From IMG/VR virus record IMGVR_UViG_3300036987_000083, positions 64,001-128,000 of that record: a DNA stretch of 64,000 bases. One strand, 5' to 3'. This DNA comes from a virus. This document shows, piece by piece, positions 2,568 through 55,707 of this stretch; the first letter of the stretch is position 1, and every line of letters starts with the position of its first letter. Both the position numbers and the translations under genes were made by a program. The notes below the pieces were generated by a model that had not been told where the DNA came from, made no database searches, and saw nothing but the letters and a program-made list of their open reading frames with translations.

Positions 2568-2674
2568 GGCCGGACTTTACCACTGGTGACTGTCTTGGTC
2601 AAGAGACGGGTGGGGCGACCACATGGTCGCTTGCGTCGAAGTGGAGGATGCAGTGGGAGTTTTCCTGCCAGGAC

Positions 2675-2716
2675 AAAAAAACCAGGGCGCGTCAGGCCCC
2701 GCAACCTGACGCGCCC
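2675..2716 (-). terminator. intrinsic terminator after ADP-ribosylglycohydrolase
   Basis: 12-bp stem GGGCGCGTCAGG/CCTGACGCGCCC plus U-tract; similar hairpins end most early cassettes (about 5030, 7195, 7933, 8969, 10369, 11120, 13466, 15399, 16018, 16764, 17757, 18786, 19915). Confidence 0.85.
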
Positions 2717-2725
2717 CCTCTGTGC

Positions 2726-3817
2726 TTACCGCGTCTTATCGCAGCGAATGCAGTAGGACTGGCCGCGATGGTTGTCCCAGCGGTGGTTGCAGCTCTCCTG
2801 CCGCGCTTGCGTCGCTTCCTTGCTGTAGAACTTGCGTGAGTCCTTGTCCGCGTTCCTATCGAACTCAGAGTCCAGCGCCCCCTCGTGCTCCGCGATGTTG
2901 GAGCAGTTGAGCAGCAATTCCGCGTGGCGCTCCAGCCCTGTGGCCTGAAACTCGTCAGGGCGATGCACCTTTGCGAGCGCGACCGTATGCACCCACTTGG
3001 CGGGAATCCGCCTCATGCCGTGGAAGGCCCCGAGGAGCGCCCCGACAATGCAGCCGTTGGTGTCCGCGTCCCCGCCGCGCATCACGGTGTTCACCACGCC
3101 TTCCTCGAAGGTGGGAGTGCTGAGGAGGTGGTGGAACGCGAGGCGGAAGGCCAGCCGGACATGACCCCCGCCGGTAAACCCGAGGTCGCCCGCCTCCGCG
3201 CGGTTCAAGTCTTCGAGGCATTCCGTCGCCCCGATGAGGGTTGCCCCTCGCTTGGCGAAGTCGAACACCTCCCGCGCAGTACGACCCGGGAGCCGGATGC
3301 ACCGCGCGATGGTGGCCACGAAGATGCCGCTGGCGTCCTGACACACCTTCGCCGGGTGAGTAAGCGATGCGTCCAGCCTGCCCAGCTTCGCCGCCTCCAG
3401 CGGGTGGAGCTTCCAAGCGAAGACCCCCAGCGGGCTGACACGCATCAGCGCCCCGTTGGCCTCCGTGGTGGAGTTGGGGTGATTCCCCCGAAGCGCCTGA
3501 CTCGTCGCACACCCCATGTCGATGGGGTGCGAGTTGGCCCACCGCTGGTAAGCCTCGAAGACCTTGGTGGAATCGTAGCAGCCCTCCCTCCCGAGGGAGC
3601 CCGCGAGCGCCATGGCCATCTCGGTGTCGTCCGTCACCTGCCCCGGTACGACACGGAAAGCCCCGCCGCCGACGATTTCGCGGAGCCCCTCCGGGTAGAG
3701 GCGCCGGCACTCAGACTCACCCTTGAATTCCAGCGTGGTTCCGAGGGCATCGCCCGTGGCTTGCCCATAGAGGGCTCCGAGGGCTCGAAAATACTGGGTG
3801 TCGTTTGCGGGGCTCAT
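2726..3817 (-). CDS. ADP-ribosylglycohydrolase (ARH/DraG family, 363 aa), leaderless, short C-terminal Cys/His finger
   Basis: GQATGDALG, TDDTEM, ANGALMR, GGDADTNGCIVGALLGA motifs; start MSPAND 6 nt below -10. Confidence 0.92.
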   Translation of the reverse strand: MSPANDTQYFRALGALYGQATGDALGTTLEFKGESECRRLYPEGLREIVGGGAFRVVPGQVTDDTEMAMALAGSLGREGCYDSTKVFEAYQRWANSHPIDMGCATSQALRGNHPNSTTEANGALMRVSPLGVFAWKLHPLEAAKLGRLDASLTHPAKVCQDASGIFVATIARCIRLPGRTAREVFDFAKRGATLIGATECLEDLNRAEAGDLGFTGGGHVRLAFRLAFHHLLSTPTFEEGVVNTVMRGGDADTNGCIVGALLGAFHGMRRIPAKWVHTVALAKVHRPDEFQATGLERHAELLLNCSNIAEHEGALDSEFDRNADKDSRKFYSKEATQARQESCNHRWDNHRGQSYCIRCDKTR

Positions 3818-3849
3818 GGTGTCCTTATACCTGAAGTTGACTGCTGTTG

Positions 3850-4065
3850 TCAAGCACCACCGGCTGCGGGTTTGAGTCTCACCCCTTCGGGCCCCAGCAG
3901 CTCATTCACGAGCTGCATTTCTTCATGGGTGATGCTGTAGACTTTCGCGGAGGTACACCAGCTCCCGTAGTCCATGGAACACTCAGGAAGAAGCCCGCGC
4001 ACCTGACTGATGGCTTTCGGGGAGTTCGGGTAAACGATGCAGTCAATGAGTTCTGACGCGGGCAT
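3850..4065 (-). CDS. hypothetical protein (71 aa), leaderless
   Basis: ATG 5 nt below -10 TACAAG; TGA stop inside next TTGACA. Confidence 0.6.
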   Translation of the reverse strand: MPASELIDCIVYPNSPKAISQVRGLLPECSMDYGSWCTSAKVYSITHEEMQLVNELLGPEGVRLKPAAGGA

Positions 4066-4181
4066 GGCTTCTTGTAGCACCAGGAGACTGCCGATGTCAA
4101 GCCTTAAGTAGTGGAGGATGCTGTGGGAGTTTTCCGTGCGGCGGGGACCTGGCGGCTTCGTAGCCACCTGGCCCTCCGAGG

Positions 4182-4469
4182 TTACTTCTCTACCACGTAG
4201 ACGCTCCACCAGAGAGCCTTGGGGTCGAGGCGCGCCGCGCCGGGATCCACGAGTGTGGATGTGCCGACGCGCAACTCCTCCCCCTTATCGAAGGGCTGCG
4301 TCTGGGCCCACTCGTGAGTCTGCCGGGTCAGCTCGTGGAAGCTCGCCACTTTCGCGCCCCGCTTGGGGTCTGGCGTCCAGTCGAACTTGAAGGCGTGCGT
4401 GGACCCGTGGGCGTCGAGCACGATGACACTGGCGACAGCGATGGGGGAGGTTTGGGGCTTGGGGTTCAC
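4182..4469 (-). CDS. hypothetical protein (95 aa)
   Basis: GTG start with AAAGGAAACACC leader. Confidence 0.65.
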   Translation of the reverse strand: MNPKPQTSPIAVASVIVLDAHGSTHAFKFDWTPDPKRGAKVASFHELTRQTHEWAQTQPFDKGEELRVGTSTLVDPGAARLDPKALWWSVYVVEK

Positions 4470-4542
4470 GGTGTTTCCTTTCCACTGCCCTAAGCCCGCT
4501 CCCCGGTACGCTGGGAAGCGGGCGGGGCGTCCATGTGGTCGC

Positions 4543-4857
4543 TTAGGCCGTCTTCTTCATCGGCTTCTGGAACTTCGCGTAACGGGCCTCCGCGCGCTTC
4601 ATGAGCCACGTCGTTCCGAAGTTGGTGGCCTCGAAGGTGCTCCGGTCGATGGTTTCGTCGAGGAGAGCGCGAATGTGCTTGCAGGTGTCCTTGAAGCCGT
4701 CGTGCTCCTTCGTGCCCTTCTTGTAGATCCACGACTTGCAGGAGCAGCCGAGGTAGCCCGTAGTGCGGAGCGCCACGACGTACTTCTCGGTCGGGTTGGT
4801 GCTGCTCCGAATGGCTCCGATTCGATTCCAGCCGTTCGTACTCGCCTTGTCGTCCAT
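4543..4857 (-). CDS. SWIM zinc-finger protein (104 aa)
   Basis: CSCKSW...CKHI = SWIM CxC..CxH; leader AAAGGAAACGAACC. Confidence 0.8.
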   Translation of the reverse strand: MDDKASTNGWNRIGAIRSSTNPTEKYVVALRTTGYLGCSCKSWIYKKGTKEHDGFKDTCKHIRALLDETIDRSTFEATNFGTTWLMKRAEARYAKFQKPMKKTA

Positions 4858-5094
4858 GGTTCGTTTCCTTTCCAGCGGGGGTTGGACTGCCAGCCATGTA
4901 TACCGCGAATGACGTGCTCTTGTCGAGCTTTTTGTTTGTCCCAAATGAAAATAAACGGCAGGGCATTTGCATAATGCGGCAGGACTAGGGTACGGAAAAC
5001 TCCCGTCTCAGGGCCTGGCCCTGGGCGTGAAGAAGCCCGCCCCTCGTTGGAAGGGCGGGCTGGGCGTTTCCACTGAGCTAGTCGTTGATGCCTG

Positions 5095-5313
5095 TCACGC
5101 GGCCTGTGCGAGCTTCGGAAGCCTCGCGGCGCACCTCGCCCTGATGGAGTCCGCCGCGACACCCGCCATGTCGCACACCTCCTCGAAGTCGGCGGACTGG
5201 TCCTCGTCGAAAATCCACGAGCGCGCCTCCTCGTAGACCTCAGGCTTCTTGCCTGAGAGGTCTTCCATCGCCGCCAGCACGACTGCCATCCACAGCGTTC
5301 GTTCCCGTTCCAT
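5095..5313 (-). CDS. hypothetical protein (72 aa)
   Basis: MERERTLW..DFEEVCDMAG; own promoter and GGAG SD. Confidence 0.7.
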   Translation of the reverse strand: MERERTLWMAVVLAAMEDLSGKKPEVYEEARSWIFDEDQSADFEEVCDMAGVAADSIRARCAARLPKLAQAA

Positions 5314-5377
5314 GTGCGCTCCGTGGGGTGTTGCGAGGTTCGAGCAATATACCTCAGAAGCCCTGCCGTTGTCAAGC

Positions 5378-5590
5378 TCAGAAGGGGTTGAGCGTGAAGC
5401 CCGTTGCCTTGATTTCTTCGGGCGTGGCCCCGGCCCTGATTGCGCCGTCATGCAGCAAGCGGAGCATTTCCAGCCAACTGTCTCGGTTCCAGCCTGGAGG
5501 GAGCCCCCGAGGCTGGTTGCGTAGGGTGTTGAGGGCCCGCTGCTTCGCGGCCTTCATCAGGAATGCAGTCACTTCATCCTGCTTGGACAC
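5378..5590 (-). CDS. hypothetical protein (70 aa)
   Basis: GTG start with AGGAG SD; operon with 5614-5844. Confidence 0.6.
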   Translation of the reverse strand: MSKQDEVTAFLMKAAKQRALNTLRNQPRGLPPGWNRDSWLEMLRLLHDGAIRAGATPEEIKATGFTLNPF

Positions 5591-5613
5591 GCGCCGCTCC
5601 TGTTGCTAAGCAG

Positions 5614-5844
5614 CTAGGGCTTGCGCGCCATCGTTCGCAGGAACGAAGCGGGCACCACCACGGGGTCGCTGTCACTCGTGAATCCGCGAGTCTCCAAGTA
5701 CGAGCACATCTTTTCCTTCGCCCGAGCCTCGTCAGTGGCGCTGATAACCTTCACGAGAGTATGAATGTCCGCGCAGCACTCCCCCATGTAGCCGGAGGCG
5801 ATGAGAAACTTGCGGAGCGTCTTCTTGGTCTTGGGGTTGGCCAT
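5614..5844 (-). CDS. hypothetical protein (76 aa), probably leaderless
   Basis: Promoter directly upstream. Confidence 0.7.
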   Translation of the reverse strand: MANPKTKKTLRKFLIASGYMGECCADIHTLVKVISATDEARAKEKMCSYLETRGFTSDSDPVVVPASFLRTMARKP

Positions 5845-5886
5845 GGGGGATACTACTAGCAGGGTTGGTCTGCCGTTGTCAAGCCC

Positions 5887-6093
5887 TTATCTGCCCTTGC
5901 GTCCATTCTTCTTGCGCTGGCGCTCGGCCTTCTTGCGCTTGCGAGCCTCTGCCGTGGCCTCGAAAGGCTTAGTGTGGTGAAGGGGCTGGCGCATGGCCTT
6001 CCAGCCGTCGTGCCGCTCGGTGTAATGGGGAGAGGGGGAGCTGAGGGCCGTGCCAATCATGGTGGCGACTGCAAGAGCGTTCGGAGAGGTCAT
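5887..6093 (-). CDS. basic hypothetical protein (68 aa), leaderless
   Basis: ATG 6 nt below -10; Lys/Arg-rich tail. Confidence 0.65.
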   Translation of the reverse strand: MTSPNALAVATMIGTALSSPSPHYTERHDGWKAMRQPLHHTKPFEATAEARKRKKAERQRKKNGRKGR

Positions 6094-6176
6094 TCCACCA
6101 GTCTACCCCAAGAGCCCTGCCGTTGTCAAGAGTGGAACCTGGCGGGAGTTTTCCAACCCGCCCTGGCCGTTTGCAC

Positions 6177-6210
6177 AAAAAAAACCCACCGACCTTTCGG
6201 CCGATGGGTT
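6177..6210 (-). terminator. strong intrinsic terminator ending the pseudoknot transcript
   Basis: ACCCATCGGCC-GAAA-GGTCGGTGGGT followed by T8. Confidence 0.85.
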
Positions 6211-6228
6211 TGTTTGTTTGGTAGTGAA

Positions 6229-6259
6229 GCGCCGAAGTTATAGGGTCAGCGCGGCCCTA
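6229..6259 (-). ncRNA. H-type pseudoknot copy B
   Basis: UAGGG-CC-GCGCUGA-CCCUA-UAACU-UCGGCGC; S1 5 bp, S2 7 bp with one U.G wobble. Confidence 0.7.
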
Positions 6260-6274
6260 AGTACGCTCAAGCAT
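6257..6274 (-). CDS. minigene MLERT*
   Basis: GGGGAG SD 7 nt upstream; UAG stop is 5' strand of pseudoknot B. Confidence 0.5.
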   Translation of the reverse strand: MLERT

Positions 6275-6351
6275 GGTGGCTCTCCCCGCCTTTTTATTCA
6301 TTCAGTGTTTTTTCCAGAGTATGGGTACTCCTCACGTTCTGTTGAGTGAGG

Positions 6352-6379
6352 CCCGGAAGTTATAGGGTCCGGGGCCCTA
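6352..6379 (-). ncRNA. H-type pseudoknot copy A
   Basis: UAGGG-C-CCCGGA-CCCUA-UAACU-UCCGGG; S2 covaries with copy B. Confidence 0.7.
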
Positions 6380-6403
6380 CCGTAAACCCAATGTGCCTGT
6401 CAT
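6377..6403 (-). CDS. minigene MTGTLGLR*
   Basis: GAGG SD; UAG stop is 5' strand of pseudoknot A. Confidence 0.45.
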   Translation of the reverse strand: MTGTLGLR

Positions 6404-6480
6404 TTGCCCTCGGGCGGTTAGAGAAGTTGTTTGACTGCCTTGCTGCTTTCGGTTTCAGCGAGCCCCCCGGCCGTGCCGTG

Positions 6481-6678
6481 TCAAACCAGCACTGAGCCGG
6501 TGTCGGCGGAGCCGACCAGAAACTCGCCCACATCCACCGGGCCGTACTCGTCGAGGACGCCCGGCGTTGACAGCGCCGTCTCCATCAGCGCGTCGAGGGC
6601 GGTAGCCACCGACTCGGCATCAGTCTTCGAGTCGTCGTACTCGACCGCAAAATACAGCCTCGCCGTCTTCTTCGCCAT
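6481..6678 (-). CDS. acidic hypothetical protein (65 aa)
   Basis: AGGAG SD, own promoter. Confidence 0.7.
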   Translation of the reverse strand: MAKKTARLYFAVEYDDSKTDAESVATALDALMETALSTPGVLDEYGPVDVGEFLVGSADTGSVLV

Positions 6679-6739
6679 GGTGCTTCTCCTTTTCCTCTTG
6701 AATCTCTTTTACTACGGGTGGCAGCCCCTTGTCAAGTAC

Positions 6740-7027
6740 CTACTCGTCGCGGACGACGGTAACGAAGTCCGCCCTGTAGATTTCGCAGGAGAGCGGGTAG
6801 GCGTTCCCCTCGGGGGAGGGCGTGCCGTTCAGCGTCTGGGCGACGCGCTCCAAGATGGTGGCCAGCGCCTCCACCTTGCCGCGCTCCTCGCTCCCCTCAG
6901 GGAGAACACAGGCCGCGTTGCGCATGGCGTCCGCCCCGCGCAGCGCCGCACCATACGCCTTGGTGAGTTCGCGGGCACCGTGCATCATGGCGATTCGGTT
7001 CCGGGCGTTCATCGTCGGCTTCGTCAT
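6740..7027 (-). CDS. hypothetical protein (95 aa)
   Basis: Conserved CCCCGCAGTCGAAAGGAACACC leader. Confidence 0.7.
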   Translation of the reverse strand: MTKPTMNARNRIAMMHGARELTKAYGAALRGADAMRNAACVLPEGSEERGKVEALATILERVAQTLNGTPSPEGNAYPLSCEIYRADFVTVVRDE

Positions 7028-7247
7028 GGGGTGTTCCTTTCGACTGCGGGGTGCGCCAGTAATACCATGTTGACCCTGCGATGGTCAAGGTATTTGAAGC
7101 GCCCAAAGAAAATAAATGGCAGGGCATTTGCACAGCCTGCTATTTCCAGGCCATAGGGGGAAGGAAAACTCCCGATTCAGGGGACCTGGCACAAGAAAAA
7201 GCCCGCTGACCCTGAGGGGCCAGCGGGCGGGGCGACCATGTGGACGC

Positions 7248-7565
7248 TTAGCTGGGGAGGACGGGGGAGGGCATCGTGGCCCCCTGCTCCTTTGCTACCT
7301 CGGCGCGCTCCTTCAGCTCGTTGGTGAGGGCGACGCCGCACTCCGCGAAAATCTCGTTGGGGTGAAGCCCCACGTCGAGCGCCAGCTTCATGCCGATGGT
7401 GACGACGGCGCGGAAGGCGCGCCGCGCGTTGTCCTTCTGCGTCAGCACGAGGCCCGGAACGGCCGCGAGGGCGGCGCTCACCGTGGGGAGAATGGCGAGC
7501 ATGATGCCCGTGCGGGTGAGGTGCTTCTCGGGGGCGGGAGCGGGAATCTGGAGGAGGTCGGACAC
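7248..7565 (-). CDS. hypothetical protein (105 aa), paralogue of 264-611
   Basis: GTG start after conserved leader; ARRAFRAVVTIG vs ARRTLRALMTIA. Confidence 0.7.
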   Translation of the reverse strand: MSDLLQIPAPAPEKHLTRTGIMLAILPTVSAALAAVPGLVLTQKDNARRAFRAVVTIGMKLALDVGLHPNEIFAECGVALTNELKERAEVAKEQGATMPSPVLPS

Positions 7566-7742
7566 GGGGTGTTCCTTTCGACTGCGGGTGTGCCCCACTA
7601 ATACCACGTTAGGCAATCAATGGTCAAGGTATTTGTTTCGACCGAATGAAGATAGCTGGCACGCGAAATGATTTCCAGGATTACGCTGGACAATGAGTTG
7701 CCCATGTCCTGCATGCGGGAGGGAGGGAAAACTCCCCGCAGC

Positions 7743-7886
7743 CTACTGGAGCCAGCGCCAGATGTGGCCGCCGAGTTCCCAGCCGATGCGACCGATGATG
7801 GCGAGAGCCACCACTTCGCTCAGGACGATGAGGGCAAAGGTGCTGAGGTCTGGGTTGTCGAAGGGGTCTTCTTCTTCTTGTCGCAT
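7743..7886 (-). CDS. putative small membrane protein (47 aa)
   Basis: MRQEEEDPFDNPDLSTFALIVLSEVVALAIIGRIGWELGGHIWRWLQ; flanked by two 11-bp boxes; no clear SD. Confidence 0.4.
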   Translation of the reverse strand: MRQEEEDPFDNPDLSTFALIVLSEVVALAIIGRIGWELGGHIWRWLQ

Positions 7887-7984
7887 AGGAGTTTTCCCTA
7901 CCACACCTTACCCGGACCTGGGGTCGAGCACAAAGAAAACCGGGCACCTATCGAGTGCCCGGTTTCCACCGCGTGGGTTGGATG

Positions 7985-8410
7985 TTACTCCGTGAGGGGC
8001 TTCAGCTCCGCGAGCACCTTCGCGAGGGTGAAGGGGCCCAGCTTCTTGTTGTGCCCGCCCTTGGGGATAATCAGGGCCGTTGGCGTGGGGTCGCCCTTGT
8101 CTGAATTCATGTAGTGCTCGGGGTCCGCCAGCTCCAGCAGCTCCGACACAACACTTTCTTTGTCCAGCATCAAACCCGAGTACCAGCGGGGGCCACAGCA
8201 TTCACACATGGACTCCGAGTAGTCCGGCTGGTCCGAGAGTCGCTCCCCCGCCTCCTGCTCGCAGTCCGCCTCGACGTACACCTGTTTCGCGGGCCCGGTG
8301 TAGAAGCCCCCGCTGTTGTTTTGCCAAAAGCGGAACCACGGGCCTTCCGCGAGGACCGTCTCCAGCATGGGCACCAAGCCCTCGGGGGTGCTCGCGTTGG
8401 TGTTCTTCAT
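7985..8410 (-). CDS. conserved phage hypothetical protein (QNNSGG..CECCGPRW, 141 aa)
   Basis: Leader plus promoter; Cys motif. Confidence 0.8.
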   Translation of the reverse strand: MKNTNASTPEGLVPMLETVLAEGPWFRFWQNNSGGFYTGPAKQVYVEADCEQEAGERLSDQPDYSESMCECCGPRWYSGLMLDKESVVSELLELADPEHYMNSDKGDPTPTALIIPKGGHNKKLGPFTLAKVLAELKPLTE

Positions 8411-8484
8411 GGCGTGTTCCTTTCCGGCGCGGGGACTGCCTCTCGGTTATACCTCCTGTGGCCTACTGTTGTCCAGCCTTTTCT

Positions 8485-8841
8485 TCAGAGCGCGTAAACC
8501 GCGCTGTACCACGACGTACACTGCTCGACGAAGGCCCCGGCCCTCGCCAGCGCCACGCGGCCTTCCTCCATGAGGCCATACTGCTCGTAGTCGAAGTTGC
8601 AGACAGGGGCCACGTCGCCGCCGTCATGCACGATGACGAAAAGGCCCTCGGTGCCGTACTCCTCACCCCGCGCCTTCCACTCCTCGGGGGTGTAGAACGT
8701 GGTGCAGCCCCCGGTGTGGGTCCGGCCCTTCTTCACGAGGAAGGCAACGAAGGCCTCGTAAGCCGCCCGAGCCTTGGGGTCGGCGAGGGTGATGGAGTTG
8801 AGGTCGTTCTTCGGAGCGTTGCGGGCGGAGTTGGCGGGCAT
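8485..8841 (-). CDS. conserved phage hypothetical protein (GGCTTFY..HDGG, 118 aa), leaderless
   Basis: ATG 6 nt below -10. Confidence 0.8.
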   Translation of the reverse strand: MPANSARNAPKNDLNSITLADPKARAAYEAFVAFLVKKGRTHTGGCTTFYTPEEWKARGEEYGTEGLFVIVHDGGDVAPVCNFDYEQYGLMEEGRVALARAGAFVEQCTSWYSAVYAL

Positions 8842-9017
8842 GGGTAATCAATACAGCAAATGGGGGTCACTTGTCCAGCCCTTAATTGAACTACTATTTG
8901 CCATGCCAACTGTCGTTGTCGGGCGGGGGAGGAGTTTTCCATGCTTTGTTCTGCGAAACCTGGCACAAGAAAAAACCCCGCCCCTTCGCGGGAGCGGGGT
9001 CGCGTCCATGTGGTCGC

Positions 9018-9236
9018 TCACTTCACGGGGTTGCCCGAGCCCTTGCACTTGGCGGGGGAGCGGAAGCCTCGGTGATTGGGGAGCGGGTCGGTTCGCTTGT
9101 TCACCGGGAAGGAGGCATCACACTCGGGGCAGTCGATGAACACCTGCCCTCGTGAGGACTTCAGGGGGCGTCCATCGGAGTAAATCTCGGGATCGAGCGG
9201 CTCGGACTCATTATCCACTTCGTCTTCAGTAGGCAT
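9018..9236 (-). CDS. Zn-ribbon-like protein (72 aa)
   Basis: CPEC..H..C; GAGG SD; palindrome after stop. Confidence 0.65.
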   Translation of the reverse strand: MPTEDEVDNESEPLDPEIYSDGRPLKSSRGQVFIDCPECDASFPVNKRTDPLPNHRGFRSPAKCKGSGNPVK

Positions 9237-9489
9237 CAGGGCACCTCGGAGTGAATGACGACGCTGGAATCCTTCCAGCTAGGTGTGGCCTTCCAGTTCC
9301 GCCCTTCGAGAGTCTTCGCCACCTTGGCCGGGCTGTCGGTGGGCATCTGAGCGAAGTAAAGCGTGCCGCAGTGTGGATGGGGTAGCGCCCCTCCCGCGCT
9401 TCGGTGCCCGGCTGGTAGGTGGAGAAGTCGGCGAGGTCACAGCCGAATGTCTCGGCAATCCAACGCTTCCAGCTCCACTTCGGTTTCAT
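9226..9489 (-). CDS. hypothetical protein (87 aa)
   Basis: ATGA overlap with upstream stop. Confidence 0.4.
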   Translation of the reverse strand: MKPKWSWKRWIAETFGCDLADFSTYQPGTEAREGRYPIHTAARFTSLRCPPTARPRWRRLSKGGTGRPHLAGRIPASSFTPRCPDAY

Positions 9490-9827
9490 CGATCCTCGCA
9501 GCAATCCATCGCGCTTTCGTACGCCGCCTCCATGTCACAGCGGTACTTCTCACCCCCCGCCTCCGCCAGCTCGTCTACCTCCGAGTCGGTCAGCTCGACC
9601 TCCGAGCCGTCACTCACGAGCGCGGCGCTGTGAACGCAGTAGCCCGCGTAGATGCCGACGGACGGGTCCGCCTGCTCCCACTCCCCCCACACCGCGACCT
9701 CCAGCTCCACGTCGTCCCCGTCAATCTCACGGGTAATGGTGGTGGTGAAGTCGGCGCTTTCCAGCAGCCTCACCAACTTCTGGGCGGCGGTAAGGACGGC
9801 GGGGGTCTTCGCGGGGTTGGGGGTCAT
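9486..9827 (-). CDS. acidic hypothetical protein (113 aa), leaderless
   Basis: ATG 6 nt below TATAAC. Confidence 0.75.
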   Translation of the reverse strand: MTPNPAKTPAVLTAAQKLVRLLESADFTTTITREIDGDDVELEVAVWGEWEQADPSVGIYAGYCVHSAALVSDGSEVELTDSEVDELAEAGGEKYRCDMEAAYESAMDCCEDR

Positions 9828-9995
9828 GCTGTCGTTATACAGGATACAGGGCACTCTTGCAAGCGTTTTGTTGAAGATAGTTTGGCCCGGAATTTGATTG
9901 TGCAAGTTGACTGCCTATGTGGCATGGAAAACTCCCCCAGGCTGGCATGGAGAGCCTGGCACCCTCCCCTCTCGGGGCTGGGGCCGGGCAGGCTG

Positions 9996-10229
9996 TTACG
10001 CGGGCTCGAAGCCTGTGTTGCAACCACCCAGCGCGGGGTGACACACCATCATGGTGCCGTCCGGCTGCTCGCGGCGGAGGGGAGGGGGAAGCTCCGTGAT
10101 GGTTCCCTTGCTGAGACACACGGGGCAGGCCGTGTGCCTCACGACGCACTGGTAGGTGCTGCCCTTGTAGTGCCACTCCAATGAGGAGCGATACTTCGTG
10201 TCGTTGTCGGTCTGCGCGGGGAGGTTCAT
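9996..10229 (-). CDS. Cys-rich protein (77 aa), leaderless
   Basis: MNLPAQ start 6 nt below TATAAC; CPVC..CHPALGGC. Confidence 0.7.
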   Translation of the reverse strand: MNLPAQTDNDTKYRSSLEWHYKGSTYQCVVRHTACPVCLSKGTITELPPPLRREQPDGTMMVCHPALGGCNTGFEPA

Positions 10230-10413
10230 GCTTCCGTTATACACGAGACAGGGCACTAGCACAAGACCCCTGACGAAATAGTTTCGGCATAGATGTTGAT
10301 TGTGCAGATAGAATGCCATTGGCCAGAGGAAAACTCCTAGTCTTGGTGTCTTTGAAAACCTGGCGTGGAAAAGCCCGCCATCCTTTCGGATGACGGGCCG
10401 ACCACATGGTCGC

Positions 10414-10842
10414 TCAGCAGTCGTAGCCGCCGTTTTCCATGCGCCGGGTGTAGGCGTCCGCGCGGTCATCGTCGGCGCGGGCCTGCTCCTGCTGCTCCCA
10501 GATGGCGAGGTCTGCCTGCTGGGCAGCGTCGCAGGACGCGAAATCCACGACAGGGACGACGCGGAGGCCCTTGCACTCGGCGCACTGCACGTCATACGCG
10601 CCCGCGAAGTAGGCTTCCTCGAAGTCGGGGTCCGCGTCGAACTCCTCCTGACTGATGCCCTGCGAGTCGATGGAGGGGTTGACGTGCGTGCCCTTGCCCT
10701 GACAGGTGCCGCACACCTCGAACTTCGCCGGGAAGTCGGTGTCCACCTCGTCACCCTCCGGGTCGTAGATGGTGAGCGTTACGGTGTTGGCCTTGGGGTC
10801 GAATCGGTTGGCGGGGAAGTTACGCTCTCGACGGTCGGGCAT
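10414..10842 (-). CDS. DnaJ-type CxxCxGxG zinc-finger phage protein (142 aa)
   Basis: CGTCQGKG and CAECKG motifs; conserved leader. Confidence 0.8.
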   Translation of the reverse strand: MPDRRERNFPANRFDPKANTVTLTIYDPEGDEVDTDFPAKFEVCGTCQGKGTHVNPSIDSQGISQEEFDADPDFEEAYFAGAYDVQCAECKGLRVVPVVDFASCDAAQQADLAIWEQQEQARADDDRADAYTRRMENGGYDC

Positions 10843-11051
10843 TGGGTCGTTTCCTTTGCTACTGCGGGTTGCGGCACTTGTACCACAGGCTGACTGTCGT
10901 TGTCAAGCGCAACAAGCCCGAGGATGATGACGGCAATGACAGCGATGACCGGAATGGCCTTGACGAGGAAGATGATGAGCCTGACGAAGGCCTTGACGGC
11001 GTACCATGCCAGAATCAGCCCCAACAGCAGGAAGAAGATGGTGGTAATCAT
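10779..11051 (-). CDS. membrane protein (two hydrophobic segments), leaderless
   Basis: Very hydrophobic first 48 aa; frame runs on through next promoter. Confidence 0.55.
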   Translation of the reverse strand: MITTIFFLLLGLILAWYAVKAFVRLIIFLVKAIPVIAVIAVIILGLVALDNDSQPVVQVPQPAVAKETTQCPTVESVTSPPTDSTPRPTP

Positions 11052-11275
11052 TCCACCACCATAGCACCAAGGCAGCCCGTTGTCAAGTGGAATAAGGGGT
11101 GGGAGTTTTCCCTTGGTGAGAAAAAACCAGGCCGACCAAGCCCCGCAGCTTGATCGGCCCTCTATGCGAACTCGGAATTGTGAAGCAGCCTAAGAGTCGC
11201 GGTGACTAGCCGCTCGCTTTCCCCGCCAGTCTAGCAGGTACATCACCGGACCCTCCGGTCCGCTCTTAGGCTCCT

Positions 11276-11485
11276 TCACAGTCCCGAATCCACCTCGAAG
11301 CCCTGCGCTTCGAGGTTGTCGTAATCCAGCGCCCGCTGAATGTCGGAGCCCGACAGTCCGGGCATATCCTCGTCGTCCCACTCCTCCACCGACGGGCCGG
11401 GCTTGCGCGCCATCGGGTGAGCCCCCGCGCCGGACTTCATGGAAGCGTGCAGGTGAACGATGTTGCGGTGCTTGGGGGTCGTCAT
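11276..11485 (-). CDS. hypothetical protein with acidic C-terminus (69 aa), leaderless
   Basis: ATG 6 nt below TAGAAA. Confidence 0.7.
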   Translation of the reverse strand: MTTPKHRNIVHLHASMKSGAGAHPMARKPGPSVEEWDDEDMPGLSGSDIQRALDYDNLEAQGFEVDSGL

Positions 11486-11573
11486 GTTCTCTTTCTACCA
11501 CTGTTTGACTGCCGTTGTCAAGCGCCGTATGGGTACCGGGTAGACGCGCCCGGCCCCGCTGTCTGACTCCCCT

Positions 11574-11765
11574 CTAGTGCGTCTTGCGGAGGGCGTTGAG
11601 GGCCGCTTGCAGCCCTTCCCGCATGCCGTCGAGGCACTCGTTGTCGAGACGCTCAGCGGTCTTCTCGTGCTCAGCGATTTCGTGAAGGAGGGTTCTGGCC
11701 ATCGCTCGGACAACCAGCTTGCGGAAGGCGTGGTTGTCCGCCAAGAGGGGGTCGTCCGGGTCCAT
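11574..11765 (-). CDS. hypothetical protein (63 aa)
   Basis: Conserved leader and promoter. Confidence 0.7.
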   Translation of the reverse strand: MDPDDPLLADNHAFRKLVVRAMARTLLHEIAEHEKTAERLDNECLDGMREGLQAALNALRKTH

Positions 11766-11884
11766 GGTGTTTCCTTTCGACTGCGGGGTGCGCTAGGTAT
11801 ACAGCCAATGGCGTGCGATTGTCTAGCTCTTTGTTCGGCTCAATTGAAAGTAGTTGGCACGGTAAATGATATTTGAACTGGGGG

Positions 11885-46259: not shown

Positions 46260-46269
46260 AATTGGCGGA

Positions 46270-46285
46270 ACGACCATGTGGTCGG
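46270..46285. repeat. palindrome variant ACGACCATGTGGTCGG after terL stop
   Basis: Intergenic; 14-bp core CGACCATGTGGTCG intact. Confidence 0.7.
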
Positions 46286-46663: not shown

Positions 46664-48586
46664 TTGGGATTCGTAGCAAATACAGCAAGCCGAATCAGGC
46701 AGTTCTTCCGCCAAGATAAGGAGCAATTGCCGCTCCGCATGGCGAAAGGAACCACTCCGTCGGCCCCGGCATCTGCCGGGTACGACATGCTCCAAGCTTA
46801 CGGACAAGACGTGCTCTCAGATTACTTGAGACTAGAGCATGATTTGTTGTCACGATACGTAGACTACGAGGAGATGGACGACTACCCAGAAATCAGCACG
46901 GCGCTCGACATATTTTCTGATGATTCTAGCCAACCCGAGACACAGATAAACCGAACTGTTTGGGTCGAGTCTCCTGACGAGAGCGTCCAACGTGTCTTGG
47001 ACGACTTGCTCCACAAAAATCTTCGTATTGATGAGGAAATCTGGGAGATCGCGCGTACGCTGGTTAAGTACGGGAATGACTGCGAAGAGATTTTGGTAAC
47101 AGAAAATGGGGTGGAAGGACTTAACTTTCTACCGCCCCCCACCGTGCGGCGCATTGAGGGCCCTCGGGGGGAGTTGTTTGGGTTCATCCAGGACTTCAAG
47201 GGCAAATTTGGGTACGGGCCTCAGGAATTTCAGCAAATACTCACTCAGCGCATGTCCACCCCCTTGGGCCGTGCTGGTGTTCCTGATAAAAATGCCACCT
47301 CTGCCAATGATGGCCGCGTAGCCGCCCTAGAGGACTGGGAGGTCGTTCACTTCCGGCTACGTGGAAAGCACCGTAGGTCTCTCTACGGGTACTCTGTTCT
47401 TGAGTCTGCAAGATGGATTTGGAAGCGCCTCATGATGTTAGAAGATGCGGCGCTAATCTACCGCCTTCAGCGTGCTCCAGAACGTTACGCGTTTTACGTA
47501 GACGTAGGGGATTTGCCCCCTGCGGAGGCTTTGGCTTTTGTAAATCGGGTTCGCCAGGGCCACAAGAAGACCAAGTACTTCAACCCTGTCTCAGGGAAAC
47601 TCGACTTAAAGTTTAACCCAATCGCACAGGACGAGGATTTTTTCGTCCCGAGTCGGAAGGGCCAGGATGGCACCCGCATTGATGTGCTGGGTGCGCCCTC
47701 GTGGCAGCACATGGATGACGTGGAGTACTTTCGTAGCAAGCTGTTTGCGGCTTTGAAAGTACCCAAGGCGTACATGGGCCAAGAGGAGGGGGTTGCGCGC
47801 GCTGTCTTGTCCTCGGAGGACGTGCGATTCGCGCGTACGGTCCTCAGGGTACAGCGCGAGATACGAAACGGACTCGCTAAAGTTTGTCGCATCCACTTGG
47901 CAGCACTGAACATTGATCCCTACCAAGTGGATTACGAAATTCGTATGACGGTGCCCTCCTCTATTTTCGAGCTGGCCCAGCTTGAGGTACGTAATGCTCG
48001 CGCAGACCTTGCTGGGCGCATGGGGCAGTTTGTGTCGTTGCATTGGACACTGGAAAACGTGTTCGGGTTTAACGACCACGACATCGAACTGATTATTGAG
48101 CAGCAGCAGGATGACGCGATTCGAATCGCCTTGAATCAGGCCAAGGCCGAAATGGCAGTTCAAAAGTTCCAACAGGAGAGCATGCCTGCCCCACCTGCGG
48201 GTGCGCCTGGCGCCGCTCAAGCACCCCAAGCCCCTCCGGAGAGTCCCCCGGGGCCGGAGCAGCCGCCTATCGACGGGGTTCAACCTGCGGAGGACCAGAC
48301 GCCTCAGGTCCCGGAGCCCGAGCCCGAGCCCGTAGCTCCAGCAACCAATGCCCAGAAGCTTACAGCGTTCCGAGCCAAGAAGTACCCGCTTAACCAGAGC
48401 CGAAGAAACTTTCAGCGCGGCGTCATCACGGAAGAAGAATTGTTTGCTGGGGCCCATCGGGAGAACGAAAAGAAAGCCATGGGTAAGCTGGAACAGTTGC
48501 TCAAAAACGATAAGGTGCTGGCAAACCGCCTCCTCGAAATTCGAGCATTATTAGACGATGTCCGCTCAATCCGAGGCGGCAAGTGA
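46664..48586 (+). CDS. gp20: portal protein, T4 gp20-like (640 aa)
   Basis: EDAALIYRLQRAPERYAFYVDVG, EDFFVP, YFRSKLFAALKVPKAY motifs; TTG start with GAGG SD. Confidence 0.93.
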   Translation: MGFVANTASRIRQFFRQDKEQLPLRMAKGTTPSAPASAGYDMLQAYGQDVLSDYLRLEHDLLSRYVDYEEMDDYPEISTALDIFSDDSSQPETQINRTVWVESPDESVQRVLDDLLHKNLRIDEEIWEIARTLVKYGNDCEEILVTENGVEGLNFLPPPTVRRIEGPRGELFGFIQDFKGKFGYGPQEFQQILTQRMSTPLGRAGVPDKNATSANDGRVAALEDWEVVHFRLRGKHRRSLYGYSVLESARWIWKRLMMLEDAALIYRLQRAPERYAFYVDVGDLPPAEALAFVNRVRQGHKKTKYFNPVSGKLDLKFNPIAQDEDFFVPSRKGQDGTRIDVLGAPSWQHMDDVEYFRSKLFAALKVPKAYMGQEEGVARAVLSSEDVRFARTVLRVQREIRNGLAKVCRIHLAALNIDPYQVDYEIRMTVPSSIFELAQLEVRNARADLAGRMGQFVSLHWTLENVFGFNDHDIELIIEQQQDDAIRIALNQAKAEMAVQKFQQESMPAPPAGAPGAAQAPQAPPESPPGPEQPPIDGVQPAEDQTPQVPEPEPEPVAPATNAQKLTAFRAKKYPLNQSRRNFQRGVITEEELFAGAHRENEKKAMGKLEQLLKNDKVLANRLLEIRALLDDVRSIRGGK

Positions 48587-48668
48587 CGTGATTTTCAGTC
48601 AATACCTTGACAGCCTAGCTGACACACCTGTAGATTTCACTCCGCCCGTAACAAGGAGTAATACCCCC

Positions 48669-49601
48669 GTGCCTACTCACTTTGTCCCAACGGAAGAAAT
48701 TCAGAAACTGACTGTTGGCAGCTACGAGCACCTCGCGTCCAAGTTGGATGAGGCTCTTTCCCGGGACGCTGCAAAGATTTTTGGGGATTCAATCCCGAAC
48801 AAGATTGAACGCATTGGAACCTTCGCGGAGCATGTGCTTGTTGCCGCTGATGACGGGCGCTTCCTGAAGGTGCGGTACGAGCGCGCAACTGGTGGTACCA
48901 TTAAGTTGGTGGGCTCGGAACCTCTCGAAGTTCAACTATACAACGAGTCCAATTTGGGTAGCTACCTTGAGAAAGAGGCGAGGACCATCGTGGAGTCCTT
49001 GCTGGCTCATGACGTCCCCCAGGCGGAGTTAAAGCTCCGGGCGTTAGTGCCTTTCGTAGAAGAGGCGGCGCCACTTACGGACGAGCAGGTGGTCGCGTCA
49101 GCCGTCGAGAGTATGCGGGCCGAGAGGCCGTGGAAACGGTTGTATCGCGAGCGGGCTGAGCAGGTTAAAGACTTCCTCGGGGAACAGCTCAAGGGGATTG
49201 AAGCACGAAAACTCCCACCCAAGTTTGCTAAGCTGAGCGACGGGCAAGTCCCGGAGGCCCAGCATGAGGGCTACAAGGAGCTGGTTCACGACGACTTGGT
49301 CTATATGGCAGAGGCGCTCAAGGGCTGGTTCCAATCCTTGGAATCGATTGAGCGTCTTAAGGCTGTAGACACCGCGAACGAGGAAGAACGTGCTGTGAAG
49401 ACAACTTTCTTGGCGTTTGCAGAGGACTTGCGCCAAGATATTCAAAACGTACGAGACTCCGTATTGGAGTCCCTTAATCTCGTCGGTTCTGTGGCACAGC
49501 TCGGAGTACTGTACGATGCTTTGGTCGAAGAAGCCTTCCATTATGAAGTTGCAAGCTGCTTTGCCTCGACGATGATTACGGAACTTCACGGTTCTAAGTA
49601 A
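48669..49601 (+). CDS. hypothetical head-module protein (310 aa; start uncertain)
   Basis: AAGGAG SD before GTG; between portal and core genes. Confidence 0.65.
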   Translation: MPTHFVPTEEIQKLTVGSYEHLASKLDEALSRDAAKIFGDSIPNKIERIGTFAEHVLVAADDGRFLKVRYERATGGTIKLVGSEPLEVQLYNESNLGSYLEKEARTIVESLLAHDVPQAELKLRALVPFVEEAAPLTDEQVVASAVESMRAERPWKRLYRERAEQVKDFLGEQLKGIEARKLPPKFAKLSDGQVPEAQHEGYKELVHDDLVYMAEALKGWFQSLESIERLKAVDTANEEERAVKTTFLAFAEDLRQDIQNVRDSVLESLNLVGSVAQLGVLYDALVEEAFHYEVASCFASTMITELHGSK

Positions 49602-53887: not shown

Positions 53888-53965
53888 CCGGACCCTAGTA
53901 CTCAGCAACTAGCTATGGTACGACTCGGCCCGTCAACCATTTCGGTTGGCGGGCCGAGGTCTTTT

Positions 53966-54906
53966 ATGGGCACTCAACACGCGAAGAAGCGCAAGTACAC
54001 GACTCCCGAAGAGCAGGTGGCTTTGGTGGCCGAATACCAAGATGGGGCGACCCAAACTGCGCTTGCCGAGAAGTACGGGATTACTCAAAACGCGGTCAGC
54101 AAGCTGCTGCAGCGCCTGGGCGTGAAGGCTCGCACTCAGACCGAGGCACAACCACCGACATTCGATGTGGCGGAGGCAGCGCGGCTTTGGGCGGAAGAGA
54201 AGCGCACTACCTACGAGATTGCGACACTGCTCGGGGTGTCTCAGTCGGTAGTGGGGTCACACCTGCTGCGTGCGGGCATCTCCAAGAGCAAGGGACGGGG
54301 CCAGCGCTATCGCCATTTTGACCGAGAGTTCTTCACGAAGGTCACGCACGAGTCTGCGTATTTTGCGGGGTTCGTTGCGGCCGACGGATGTGTCCATGGG
54401 GAGAACGACACCGTGTCCTTCGGGCTGCACCCGAACGACCGTGTCGTGCTGGAGAACTTGAGGGCGGCGGCAAAGCTGGAGCAGCCGATTACCGAGCGGA
54501 ACAACAACTTCGGCAAGCCCTATGTCTGGATGAGTGTGACTTCCCAGAGTGGGTTGAGTCCCTGGAGCGTATCTATAAAATTACGCCCAAGAAGTCCTTG
54601 ACGCTCCAGCCGCCAACCGAGCTGGGCTGGGAGTACGTGTGGTCCTATGTTCGGGGCTACTTTGATGGTGACGGCCATGCGACGAAAGATGGGAAGGGCG
54701 TGCAGATTACTTGCGGGTCATTGCCCTTTATTACTTGGGTTATTCTGGACCTGTTTCGTTCGCACCACAAGATATACGAGCACCCCAAGTACGAGCGCGC
54801 TGACGGTACATCGGCACCCACGTATGGCTGCTACGTATCGGAGAAAACCCGTCTGAAGTACCGAGAGAAGAAAGTCGCAGCCGCGCAGAAGGAACCGCTG
54901 GGCTAG
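53966..54906 (+). pseudogene. HTH-LAGLIDADG homing endonuclease split by a 1-nt frameshift near 54543
   Basis: YFAGFVAADG in frame 1; YVRGYFDGDG in frame 2; junction ACT TCC CAG AG. Confidence 0.8.
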
Positions 54907-55028
54907 CGTGTTGCCCCTGAGAAGTTCAGTCAGCGGAATTAGGACTACACAGCCGGGCTAAAAGTACAGTAGAGTCTGGCTGATAGAATTTGAATGTGCT
55001 AAAAGCATATAGTCCTACCAGGAGCCCC

Positions 55029-55688
55029 ATGCGCGCACTGCTTCGTGAGTTACAGGCCTCAATGCACCCAGAGAATTCTGAGACCCAGGAGGGGGTTTGG
55101 GGTGGGATTAAGAAAGCGGCGGGCAAGGTGGCCAGTGTGGCAGACACTGCCGTTAGCGCAGTTCCGGTGGTTGGAACTGCCTATGACGCAGGAGTCGGAC
55201 TGTATAAGGCGGGTAGAACGCTTCAACACGGAACAACAGCGCTGAGGAAATGGGCAACTGGCGACAAGCAAGGAGCCGCAGCCTCAGCTCAAAAGGCCAA
55301 GGAGGCTGGCGTAGATACCTTGGGCCGCGCCGCAGGCGTTGGTGCTTCCGTGCTGGCTCCGGGCGTGGGAGGTGCCGCCGCTAGTCTGGCTACAAAGGTA
55401 GCTGCAAAGCCCCTCGTTAAGGCTGCTGTAAGCGGCGCCGTGAAGCCTGTTCTGAAGAGCGCGGCAAGAGCTGGAACTGCTGTTGCGCAGAATGCGATTA
55501 AAAAGAAGCCCAAAATCTCGCCCGCAGTGCCGCCCACGCCCCCTCTTGTGCCCGCCAAGCAGAGCGAGTCTGTGCTGTTCCAATCAGTCCGGGCGCTGGT
55601 GGAATTTAGAAGCTTGGTAGGTCTACCTATTACGCAGGAGCACCGAGCGCAACTAGAGGCAGAAGAGTCACTTGACGCAGGAAGTTAA
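55029..55688 (+). CDS. Gly/Ala-rich putative internal/ejection protein (219 aa)
   Basis: AGGAG SD; ..QE/GVWGG..AVPVVGTAYD hydrophobic helices. Confidence 0.65.
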   Translation: MRALLRELQASMHPENSETQEGVWGGIKKAAGKVASVADTAVSAVPVVGTAYDAGVGLYKAGRTLQHGTTALRKWATGDKQGAAASAQKAKEAGVDTLGRAAGVGASVLAPGVGGAAASLATKVAAKPLVKAAVSGAVKPVLKSAARAGTAVAQNAIKKKPKISPAVPPTPPLVPAKQSESVLFQSVRALVEFRSLVGLPITQEHRAQLEAEESLDAGS

Positions 55689-55691
55689 CTA

Positions 55692-55707
55692 GCGACCATA
55701 TGGTCGC
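55692..55707. repeat. perfect palindrome GCGACCATATGGTCGC
   Basis: Intergenic, 3 nt after a stop codon. Confidence 0.9.

Follow-up and report, generated by a model that had tools for sequence, protein, structure and literature searches.

A repeated palindrome in a T4-like phage contig

The 64,000-nucleotide stretch analysed here (the window) comprises bases 64001–128000 of a single viral contig of 179,489 bp (IMG/VR record IMGVR_UViG_3300036987_000083) and carries repeated copies of a 16-bp palindrome, GCGACCA-YR-TGGTCGC (Y, pyrimidine; R, purine), which we call the P-box. The contig encodes a T4-type portal (gp20), major capsid protein (gp23), prohead protease and tail sheath and is therefore assigned to a distant T4-like myovirus, whose closest cultured relatives show protein identities below 40%. 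It has a G+C content of 54–64% and is present in two DNA runs, one from a groundwater and one from a coal metagenome, and in no listed RNA run. On rough gene calls, very small genes, nearly all on the minus strand, occupy the first 85 kb of the contig (window 1–21 kb), with plus-strand genes beyond.

The exact pattern GCGACCANNTGGTCGC is found four times in the window against an expectation of 0.00. With up to two mismatches to GCGACCANNTGGTCGC allowed there are 15 matches against 0.37 expected, the largest number in any shuffle being four. All 14 copies listed in the initial annotation are among the 15; the additional match, at 49081, is probably due to chance and is not counted as a member. 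The matches are as follows, with coordinates here and below referring to the window unless the contig is named and a slash showing how the overlap divides a stop codon.

2615–2630, minus strand: exact P-box, 11 nt from TTGACC (−35 box), not fused to a stop codon; the order on this strand is terminator, GGAAAACTCC box, TCCAC, P-box, 11 nt, TTGACC
4527–4542, minus strand: P-box with one mismatch (A/T at arm position 4), overlapping the TA/A stop of open reading frame (ORF) 4543–4944; a hairpin with a weak T-run directly after
7232–7247, minus strand: P-box, position-4 variant, overlapping the TA/A stop of ORF 7248–7616; terminator 7228–7201 next
9002–9017, minus strand: P-box, position-4 variant, overlapping a TG/A stop; terminator 9001–8974 next
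10398–10413, minus strand: P-box with an outer mismatch, overlapping the TG/A stop of ORF 10414–10842; terminator-like hairpin next
12538–12553, minus strand: exact P-box, overlapping the TA/A stop of ORF 12554–12820; no terminator; CCAGG and a GGAAAACTCC box next
14412–14427, minus strand: P-box, position-4 variant with TA centre, overlapping the T/AG stop of ORF 14427–14879; no terminator
16799–16814, minus strand: P-box, position-4 variant with TA centre, overlapping the TA/A stop of ORF 16815–17090; terminator, GGGAGTTTTCC box and TTGACA promoter downstream
19284–19299, minus strand: P-box with position 4 changed from A to C, overlapping the TA/A stop of ORF 19300–19788; terminator next
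19946–19961, minus strand: P-box with two mismatches, overlapping the TA/A stop of ORF 19962–20234; terminator next
29575–29590, plus strand: P-box with exact arms and a TC centre (the sole non-YR copy among the window members), after a terminator and 2 nt upstream of TTGACA in the promoter of ORF 29618–29803
33225–33240, plus strand: P-box with one outer mismatch, within the radical-SAM gene 33130–34524, a rare intragenic copy
46270–46285, plus strand: weak P-box with both outermost bases changed, between the stop at 46259 of a 1497-residue intein-containing ORF and the ATG at 46300
49081–49096, strand not assigned: match with two mismatches, a GG centre and broken arms, within gene 48558–49601; probably chance
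55692–55707, plus strand: exact P-box with TA centre, between the stop at 55688 and the Shine-Dalgarno sequence and ATG at 55723

The local setting is largely as the initial annotation described it. Nine of the ten minus-strand copies, those at 4527–19946, overlap the stop codon of the upstream ORF, split as TA/A in six, TG/A in two and T/AG in one. In seven copies a terminator, a G+C-rich hairpin with a T-run, starts 0–2 nt further on, the exceptions being 12538 and 14412, which have none; the hairpin at 4527 has a poor T-run. Two copies, 2615 and 29575, lie just before a −35 box (11 and 2 nt upstream of TTGACC and TTGACA, respectively). The centre is indeed variable, with TG, CA, CG and TA in the window copies and the single TC at 29575.

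Distribution along the contig and anatomy of the site

Along the whole contig there are 48 matches at up to two mismatches, about 44 of them convincing, with one every 2.4 kb or so across the small-gene half and about one every 8 kb across the structural half. The sites are thus found genome-wide, late structural genes included, and are confined neither to early DNA nor to the window; the link to first-injected DNA suggested earlier is not borne out. The site centres fall outside called genes in 40 of the 44 cases, coding sequence making up 0.75 of the DNA (p ~3e-20). Among the 27 sites in called intergenic gaps, 11 overlap a stop codon, against 0.63 expected from uniform placement, and of the 58 sites close to an ORF end in eight pooled contigs, 24 overlap the stop and 35 are no more than 3 nt from it. 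The spacing is also markedly even, with a coefficient of variation of 0.37 at contig 40–85 kb (0.89 expected; 0 of 5000 simulations as low) and of 0.48 at contig 85–179 kb (0.92 expected; p=0.008).

Pooling the contig with seven related contigs gives 88 sites. The core CGACCA-YR-TGGTCG is invariant save for arm position 4, where most half-sites have A and 16 of the 88 sites have T (rarely C) in one half; the outermost G/C pair shows transitions. On the gene side the flanking base is A in 46 of the 88 and its mirror base is not enriched; the 18-bp palindrome originally proposed is therefore a 16-mer plus the last base of the stop codon. Copies with exact arms have the centres CG (33), TG (18), CA (16), TA (2), TC (1) and GC (1), a Y-R step in 69 of 71.

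The order of stop codon, palindrome, terminator, CCAGG, GGAAAACTCC box and promoter holds for window 4.5–20 kb and is not general. Terminator, box, P-box and promoter follow one another at contig 60333, 63877, 66615 (window 2615) and 50343; terminator, P-box and promoter at contig 1402 and 93575 (window 29575); and P-box, box and promoter at contig 29862, 34446, 40184, 41107 and 56332. Within operons the order is stop codon, P-box, Shine-Dalgarno sequence and ATG, as at window 46270 and 55692, and this is the commonest form in four related contigs (G002, G008, G009 and G010). The gaps are short: 0–2 nt to a terminator, 0–5 nt to a Shine-Dalgarno sequence and 1–11 nt to a −35 box. No T-run directly follows the P-box, the terminators, where present, being separate hairpins, and no consistent alternative pairing was found between the P-box and an adjacent terminator. 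Distances to the −35 box (11, 19, 20, 26, 31, 57–60, 95, 107 and 151) reveal no helical period.

Conserved positions and changed sequence in relatives

Exact-pattern scans of IMG/VR recovered relatives with the P-box: 11 copies at up to one mismatch in the 76 kb of G002, nine in the 145 kb of G010, six in G008, five in G012, four in G011 and three each in G006 and G009, with the motif also present in L117 and L162. Shared proteins link these contigs to each other and to a further contig, G003, so that together they are pieces of one T4-like lineage that cover different parts of the genome; in G002 there are genes for UvsX, primase, UvsW-like and gp41-like helicases and the baseplate.

The P-box at the 55692 junction is kept in L117, G006 and G008, whose capsid proteins are 92%, 85% and 68% identical, respectively, and the flanks of the conserved copy are just 69% identical or cannot be aligned. 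At the orthologous junction L120 has GGACCG-CA-CGGTCC and L125 has GACCACGTGGTC. The junction of the weak copy at 46270 holds a better copy in G006. No P-box was found in G003 to G005 (capsid protein 67% identical), and in its place G003 has 13–15 copies of a perfect palindrome, CAAT-CCGCCCGTACGGGCGG-ATTG, which lie after stop codons, before Shine-Dalgarno sequences or upstream of CTTGACAATC. In this record (IMGVR_UViG_3300037470_000672) 15 sites were noted, for example at 16450, 92764 and 148641, with the 24-bp palindrome CAATCCGCCCGTACGGGCGGATTG invariant in 13. That the positions persist while both arms are reset is the signature of a sequence-specific reader co-evolving with its sites.

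The initial annotation did not recognise the palindrome as a known site, and this stands: a literature search found no publication with the P-box motif, GACCACGTGGTC appearing only in papers on eukaryotic E-boxes. When 185,579 bacterial species genomes were searched for the perfect 16-mer GCGACCACGTGGTCGC, at least 120 scattered single hits turned up in unrelated G+C-rich taxa, with no multi-copy genome among the matches listed, which makes a host regulon look unlikely.

Also noted was an ORFan family of small helical proteins (TRTGI...RRxFRA), at window 264–671 and 7248–7616 and at 24362–24724 of G002. It occurs in four P-box contigs, is absent from G003 and has no Pfam or Atlas match; in the window (P-box 7232) and in G002 a P-box lies at or inside the 3′ end of the gene.

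The P-box as a double-stranded DNA site

Any DNA palindrome would also be a hairpin once transcribed, so that position alone cannot separate a DNA site from an RNA one. The pattern of change is more informative. At any one site the transversion between A and T at position 4 affects one arm only; it has arisen in either arm and in three different phages, never with compensation. It yields A.A or U.U mismatches, no G.U-type change being seen in the 88 sites, and it lowers the predicted stability of the hairpin from −9.9 to −5.6 kcal/mol. The stem is conserved while the ‘loop’ varies, and the Y-R rule at the centre reads the same on either strand. In nine cases the P-box is placed after an intrinsic terminator and ahead of the next promoter, where little RNA is expected, and copies within one genome are alike in sequence, not merely in structure. 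The uncompensated position 4, the fixed stem with a variable centre, the location in terminator–promoter gaps and the single shared sequence together point to a double-stranded DNA site, and the uncompensated A/T and the Y-R centre favour, as first proposed, a site for a two-fold symmetric protein over an RNA hairpin. The P-box is a real element, under selection and specific to its lineage, and it operates on double-stranded DNA.

A MerR-type regulator as candidate reader

Four of the related contigs (G002, G008, G010 and G003) encode a protein family of about 270 residues with two MerR-type helix-turn-helix units, 37–44% identical to one another and matching PHROG 19880 ‘transcriptional regulator’. 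The gene sits between those of UvsX and the UvsW-like helicase. In G002 the protein has 263 residues (L129 7509–8300, minus strand). In an AlphaFold model (pLDDT 84) the chain starts with a helical hairpin, after which a unit of beta-hairpin, helix-turn-helix, wing and helix occurs twice. Sequence and fold searches match only DNA-binding domains of the MerR family (MerR, CadR, CueR, GlnR, CarH, CvkR and RacA), with the RacA–DNA complex 5i44 among the best fold matches.

Homologues, some of them single-domain, were found at 18 IMG/VR loci, and these loci carry repeated palindromes of one build, with arms of 6–7 bp and a 2-bp centre. The arms are CGACCA; GGACCA (G018, five copies); GGACCG (G019 and G007, three each); TGCAAT (50 copies in the complete 98-kb record G013, 13 each in G014 and G015 and six in G017); and TGAAAT (five copies in 20 kb). 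Every centre is Y-R among the matches listed, and the contexts are those of the P-box: after stop codons, after terminators, before −35 boxes and before Shine-Dalgarno sequences. At least three copies of a 6-2-6 palindrome are present at 5 of 13 regulator loci. Among controls this holds for 1 viral locus of 116 and 1 bacterial locus of 109, and the viral one is itself another P-box contig. No HTH_3 or MerR_1 match other than the family member was found in G013. MerR-family proteins distort the centre of dyad operators, which fits the Y-R rule. The MerR-type regulator found in relatives is our best candidate for the reader of the P-box, a lead rather than a proof.

A tblastn search of cultured phages with the tandem-domain protein gave no match. 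Among the matches to a single-domain member in cultured phages is gp059 of Stenotrophomonas phage DLP5 (NC_042082.1), annotated ‘transcriptional regulator’, and DLP5 was chosen only by this homology. The gp059 gene lies between an SF2 helicase gene and, one gene further, that of a UvsX-like recombinase. The DLP5 genome has 27 exact copies of TGCAAT-YR-ATTGCA, all with Y-R centres, or about one every 3.6 kb; roughly half of them sit close against stop codons and the other half are intragenic. The candidate partner site of gp059 would be TGCAATCAATTGCA. The paper describing DLP3 and DLP5 makes no mention of the DLP5 palindromes.

The regulator gene was not found on the contig itself, which is incomplete. 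CheckV estimates its completeness at 88%, a figure that is probably too high, since the contig has no counterpart of the baseplate module or of the replication module (UvsX, primase and helicases) present in G002, and a 21–30-kb baseplate/tail-fibre block that lies between two conserved genes in G003, G009, G010 and G011 is missing at contig 153671–153944. Extension of the contig through Logan gave no gain, the Logan contig that holds the last gene stopping at the same place.

Several other proteins were considered and set aside. The HTH_3 match in the window (gene 53915–54601) is the N-terminus of a split LAGLIDADG homing endonuclease, and an RHH-like protein of 74 residues (contig 156926–157150) has a hydrophobic strand and lies within the tail module. 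A search for AbrB found nothing, ParB_N (PF02195) has no match at E≤1 on the contig, and an ESM Atlas search with the ORFan family at window 264–671 gave no lead. No DNA-binding family was found among the proteins of P-box contigs that are absent from G003, nor among the genes downstream of P-box promoters. A CRISPR link was likewise discarded, the repeat of the Cas12m array (contig 5048–5447) being unrelated to the P-box. At three regulator loci, tandem arrays of short palindromes were noted about 7 kb upstream of the regulator gene (L360 2927–3010, GACCG-NN-CGGTC ×4; L365 2392–2452, AGACAAG-N-CTTGTCT ×3; L370 2822–2893, CGGACC-N5-GGTCCG ×3); they are iteron-like and could mark an origin.

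Interpretation and alternatives

The reading we favour, to which we would give about an even chance of being right, is that the P-box is a double-stranded DNA docking site for a phage-encoded two-fold symmetric protein, for which the MerR-type regulator is the best candidate, and that it marks the boundaries of transcription units. A docked protein that starts with a helical hairpin and continues with one or two winged helix-turn-helix domains of MerR type would probably bend or kink the flexible central Y-R step. Bound across the genome, it may mark unit boundaries and, much as happens at stoperators or KorB operators, modulate read-through as well as sigma-70-type promoters close by, the array setting the boundaries or silencing neighbouring units. 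Contact with stop codons, terminators, −35 boxes and ribosome-binding sites would then reflect tight packing into whatever free intergenic slot exists, and recombination between copies would be a side effect that occasionally moves gene blocks. Both the identity of the protein and the regulatory outcome are what we infer. A wider proposal, put forward tentatively and more doubtful than the docking site itself, is of an undescribed phage system in which a MerR-type regulator encoded beside UvsX and UvsW reads evenly spaced, lineage-reset Y-R palindromes that partition the genome into transcription or looping domains. If true, the system would exist in T4-like jumbo phages and Delepquintavirus siphophages alike, as a minimal phage chromatin boundary system that times expression.

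Several observations weigh against this interpretation. The sense-strand centre is CA rather than TG by about 2.5-fold (21:8 on the contig and 18:8 in DLP5), a bias that a purely symmetric site does not predict, and a position after a stop codon and just before a ribosome-binding site would suit an RNA element too. As to the reader, its gene is the one missing from the contig, and the phages' common descent confounds the link between family and palindrome. Three members whose recognition helices differ considerably (L371, L374 and L375) accompany the same TGCAAT site, two others (L367 and L369) have no repeated palindrome within 20 kb, and the two helix-turn-helix units of the tandem-domain form are unlike each other, although the site is a near-perfect palindrome. 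Finally, of about 90 predicted sigma-70-like promoters, only about 17 have a P-box within 220 bp upstream, at distances from 4 to 210 bp, so that a classical operator role is not evident.

Because the spacing is even and the relation to promoters loose, the main rival is a chromosome-organising role, in which the phage DNA would be folded or anchored by a protein able to bridge or spread, on the model of RacA–ram, ParB–parS or MatP–matS, and effects on transcription would be secondary. We regard this as unlikely, but as the most serious competitor. It would account for a spacing far more even than random, for the lack of a fixed relation to promoters and terminators and for sites in early and late regions alike, and the long N-terminal helical hairpin and MerR-type winged helices of the candidate, with 5i44 among its best fold matches, would suit it; DLP5 is also reported to persist as a phagemid (PMC5834331). 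A purely architectural site, however, would have no need of the strong preference for non-coding DNA and gene ends. The ParB_N domain is not on the contig, about half of the copies are intragenic in DLP5 and in the Cluster O phages considered below, and T4-like lytic phages have no known need for partition. Of the parS/matS-like role suggested at the outset, the even spacing and the RacA-like fold of the candidate speak in favour and the lack of a ParB on the contig against.

An RNA element, a hairpin of 6–7 bp with a 4-nt loop in 3′ untranslated regions and intercistronic spacers that stabilises the ends of messenger RNAs or serves as an operator for an RNA-binding protein or nuclease, is less probable again. 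Many copies do lie in transcribed spacers right after a stop codon, with the stop overlapped in the 24 of 58 cases given above, and others precede a Shine-Dalgarno sequence by 0–5 nt; the predicted folding energy of perfect copies is about −10 kcal/mol, the arms change jointly between lineages with pairing kept, and the CA bias would be at home in a transcript. Such an element is nevertheless hard to reconcile with uncompensated mid-stem A.A, U.U or similar mismatches in 16 of the 88 copies and no G.U-type change, with a conserved stem and variable loop, which is the reverse of how RNA usually evolves, with the identity of a genome's copies in sequence and not structure alone, or with the nine copies set between a terminator and the next promoter.

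Recombination as the primary function, with the P-box as the crossover site of a site-specific recombinase (2-bp overlap, serine type) or as an attC-like cassette boundary, seems very improbable, although some copies do lie at rearrangement junctions. In G009 a P-box at 6917 follows the orthologue of the baseplate gene at contig 152892–153671 and precedes a 21-kb baseplate/tail-fibre block, which a second P-box at 28302 closes, followed by a promoter and the orthologue of contig 153944–154291; on the contig a single P-box (153817) lies between the same two genes. The nucleotide flanks of the block are too diverged between G009 and the contig to be aligned. A P-box also marks the left edge of a 22-kb tRNA island that is absent from G009 and G010, the TRTGI ORFan genes at window 7248–7616 and in G002 share a P-box at their 3′ ends in otherwise unrelated surroundings, and G010 encodes a resolvase. 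Against this, no tyrosine recombinase (PF00589) was found in the contig, itself incomplete, or in G002, G003, G008 and G010, and no resolvase on the contig, G010 being the only one of these five records to have one. Moreover, 44 active crossover sites would shred the genome, the differing centres would block exchange by a serine recombinase, and the phage population is identical over 20 kb, the contigs of the two DNA runs matching the window throughout 1–20000. Short ‘joints’ in the population data are 20–26-nt repeat matches from other contigs, not deletions. Ordinary homologous recombination explains repeat deletions in Cluster O phages and in the PeSLs of T4-type phages (PMC4351075, PMC2839356). 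Given this precedent and the scarcity of recombinases, we regard recombination between P-boxes as a side effect; the proposed tie to rearrangement junctions is retained for the G009 block bounded by two copies, which reads as a by-product of repeats. The integron or attC-like crossover is abandoned, with no tyrosine recombinase, no resolvase on the contig, sequence conserved over structure and ‘cassettes’ that have their own promoters. A small serine recombinase with a MerR/HTH_17-type domain, possibly an invertase, was noted at the end of G010 (144686–145285), with no P-box nearby.

Least probable of all is a host regulator's operator exploited by the phage, or a selfish REP/MITE-like repeat that spreads by itself: an identical 16-mer common to several otherwise dissimilar contigs and the G003 24-bp palindrome, invariant in 13 copies as after recent spread, would fit, but the bacterial matches listed from the 185,579 species genomes are scattered singles in unrelated taxa, the contigs with the motif share proteins as one phage lineage, the sites are held at orthologous junctions across long divergence, and no transposase was seen, though no search for the RAYT family PF01797 was made. 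REP/RAYT palindromes are imperfect, 20–40 nt long and have a cognate Y1 transposase, whereas the P-box is shorter and positionally conserved.

Comparison with known systems

RacA of Bacillus subtilis is a MerR-like winged-helix protein with a coiled coil that binds about 25 dispersed copies of ram, a 14-bp G+C-rich palindrome. It is a cellular anchor of the sporulation chromosome, and the likeness rests on the partial fold match of the candidate protein to 5i44. Operators of the MerR family are dyads placed between −35 and −10 boxes with a spacer of 19–20 bp, whereas P-boxes lie upstream of −35 boxes or away from promoters. The attC sites of integrons, 57–141 bp long, conserve folded structure over sequence, need the IntI tyrosine recombinase and delimit promoterless cassettes. 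The P-box resembles them in lying at the 3′ ends of small genes, often overlapping the stop codon, but it is 16 bp long and near-invariant in sequence, no PF00589 match was found in the five records searched, and about 67 sigma-70-like promoters are predicted in the 85-kb small-gene region.

A close parallel is the 17-bp dyad repeat TGTTCGG-NNN-CCGAACA of the Cluster O mycobacteriophages, present in 34 copies in Corndog, for which the authors suspected a dimeric protein, the function being unknown, and traced some insertions and deletions to recombination between copies (PMC4351075). Both repeats have invariant 7-bp arms, a variable centre, dozens of copies, positions kept in relatives and, apart from the scattered single matches to the P-box, absence from the host and from bacteria. 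The Cluster O spacer, however, is 3 bp and A/T-rich rather than 2 bp and strictly Y-R, in Corndog about one site in three is intragenic as against 4 of 44 P-boxes, and the repeat belongs to a siphovirus of actinobacteria and is unrelated to the P-box in sequence.

At the stoperators of Cluster A mycobacteriophages (L5 gp71, TipsytheTRex repressor) a bound phage protein halts elongation (PMC9283540, PMC6550527). Stoperators too lie in many copies in short intergenic spaces, as do P-boxes (40 of 44 non-coding, 11 abutting a stop), and their sequence and the specificity of the protein differ between sublineages. They are asymmetric 13-bp sites read by a monomer in one orientation, whereas the P-box is palindromic with only the weak CA/TG bias, and they serve the immunity repressor of temperate phages, whereas the P-box is found in a T4-like phage in which no lysogeny genes were seen. 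On plasmid RK2 the short palindrome OB, adjacent to promoters or up to 1.5 kb away, lets KorB silence at a distance (PMC11790492). The P-box, with 16 bp and about 44 copies, is likewise a short multi-copy palindrome at variable distances from promoters, but KorB is a CTPase clamp of the ParB family, while ParB_N is lacking on the contig and the candidate reader is MerR-type. The PeSLs of T4-type phages combine an early promoter with a stem-loop, and recombination between such modules shuffles genes (PMC2839356, PMC4122927). They belong to the same phage group, in which small ORFans are separated by terminator/sigma-70-promoter modules that begin at the upstream stop, and the modules at window 1–21 kb fit the definition, since ORFans there are flanked by a terminator stem-loop together with a strong sigma-70-like promoter. 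No 16-bp palindrome is conserved in PeSLs, however, and the P-box, which falls outside their definition, is present in only about a quarter of the modules and also in late operons without a PeSL.

Dispersed palindromes of this sort are being met in a growing number of phage genomes, those of Cluster O among them, with reader and role unexplained. New, as far as we have found, are the P-box sequence, its strict Y-R centre, the relatives with reset sequence and the link to a MerR-type protein with a cultured test system. The P-box adds to the Cluster O case an argument for action at the DNA level, relatives in which positions are constant and sequence has changed, and a testable candidate reader, available in culture as gp059 and the 27 TGCAAT-YR-ATTGCA sites of the Stenotrophomonas maltophilia phage DLP5. 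If the link is true, a genome-wide layer of control or organisation in large lytic phages could become accessible, and the same knowledge would aid the reading of promoter and operon structure in uncultured phage genomes. We know of no MotA/AsiA-type switches of the T4 kind in large lytic phages of this sort, T4-like ones included.

Neighbouring elements and other features

A second intergenic box, GGAAAACTCC(C), is present in either orientation in window 1–21000 (contig 27–85 kb). It is distinct from the P-box, can lie on either side of it and is often followed by TTCCAC/GTGGA about 10 bp before an extended −35 element, CTTGACAAcgGCAG. Two promoter flavours can be recognised: CTTGACAACGGCAG, 18 nt and TATAAG, which forms the majority in the small-gene region, and CTTGACAATCGC with a weaker −10 box resembling GTACTGT/TAGTAT. 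Examples are at window 29594 and at contig 1392, 165671 and 176908. P-boxes 2–10 nt from a −35 box mostly accompany the CTTGACAATCGC type.

The 1497-residue ORF at 41766–46259, before the portal gene, contains intein splicing, LAGLIDADG and HNH domains and, judged by position alone, is likely to be the large terminase; inteins are likewise found in UvsX and in the UvsW-like and gp41-like helicases of G002. Directly after the major capsid gene lies a gene for a LAGLIDADG homing endonuclease that begins with a helix-turn-helix (53915–54906); it is apparently split into two overlapping ORFs, an intact version of 342 residues being present in G003. Just upstream of structural genes, at window 34560–34620, 46240–46265, 54960–55030, 59380–59420 and 61040–61090, there is a motif (G)CTAAAA(T/G/C) or CTAAACT that resembles a G+C-shifted T4 late promoter (TATAAATA); were it a late promoter, the P-boxes at 46270 and 55692 would begin at about +1 of the late transcript.

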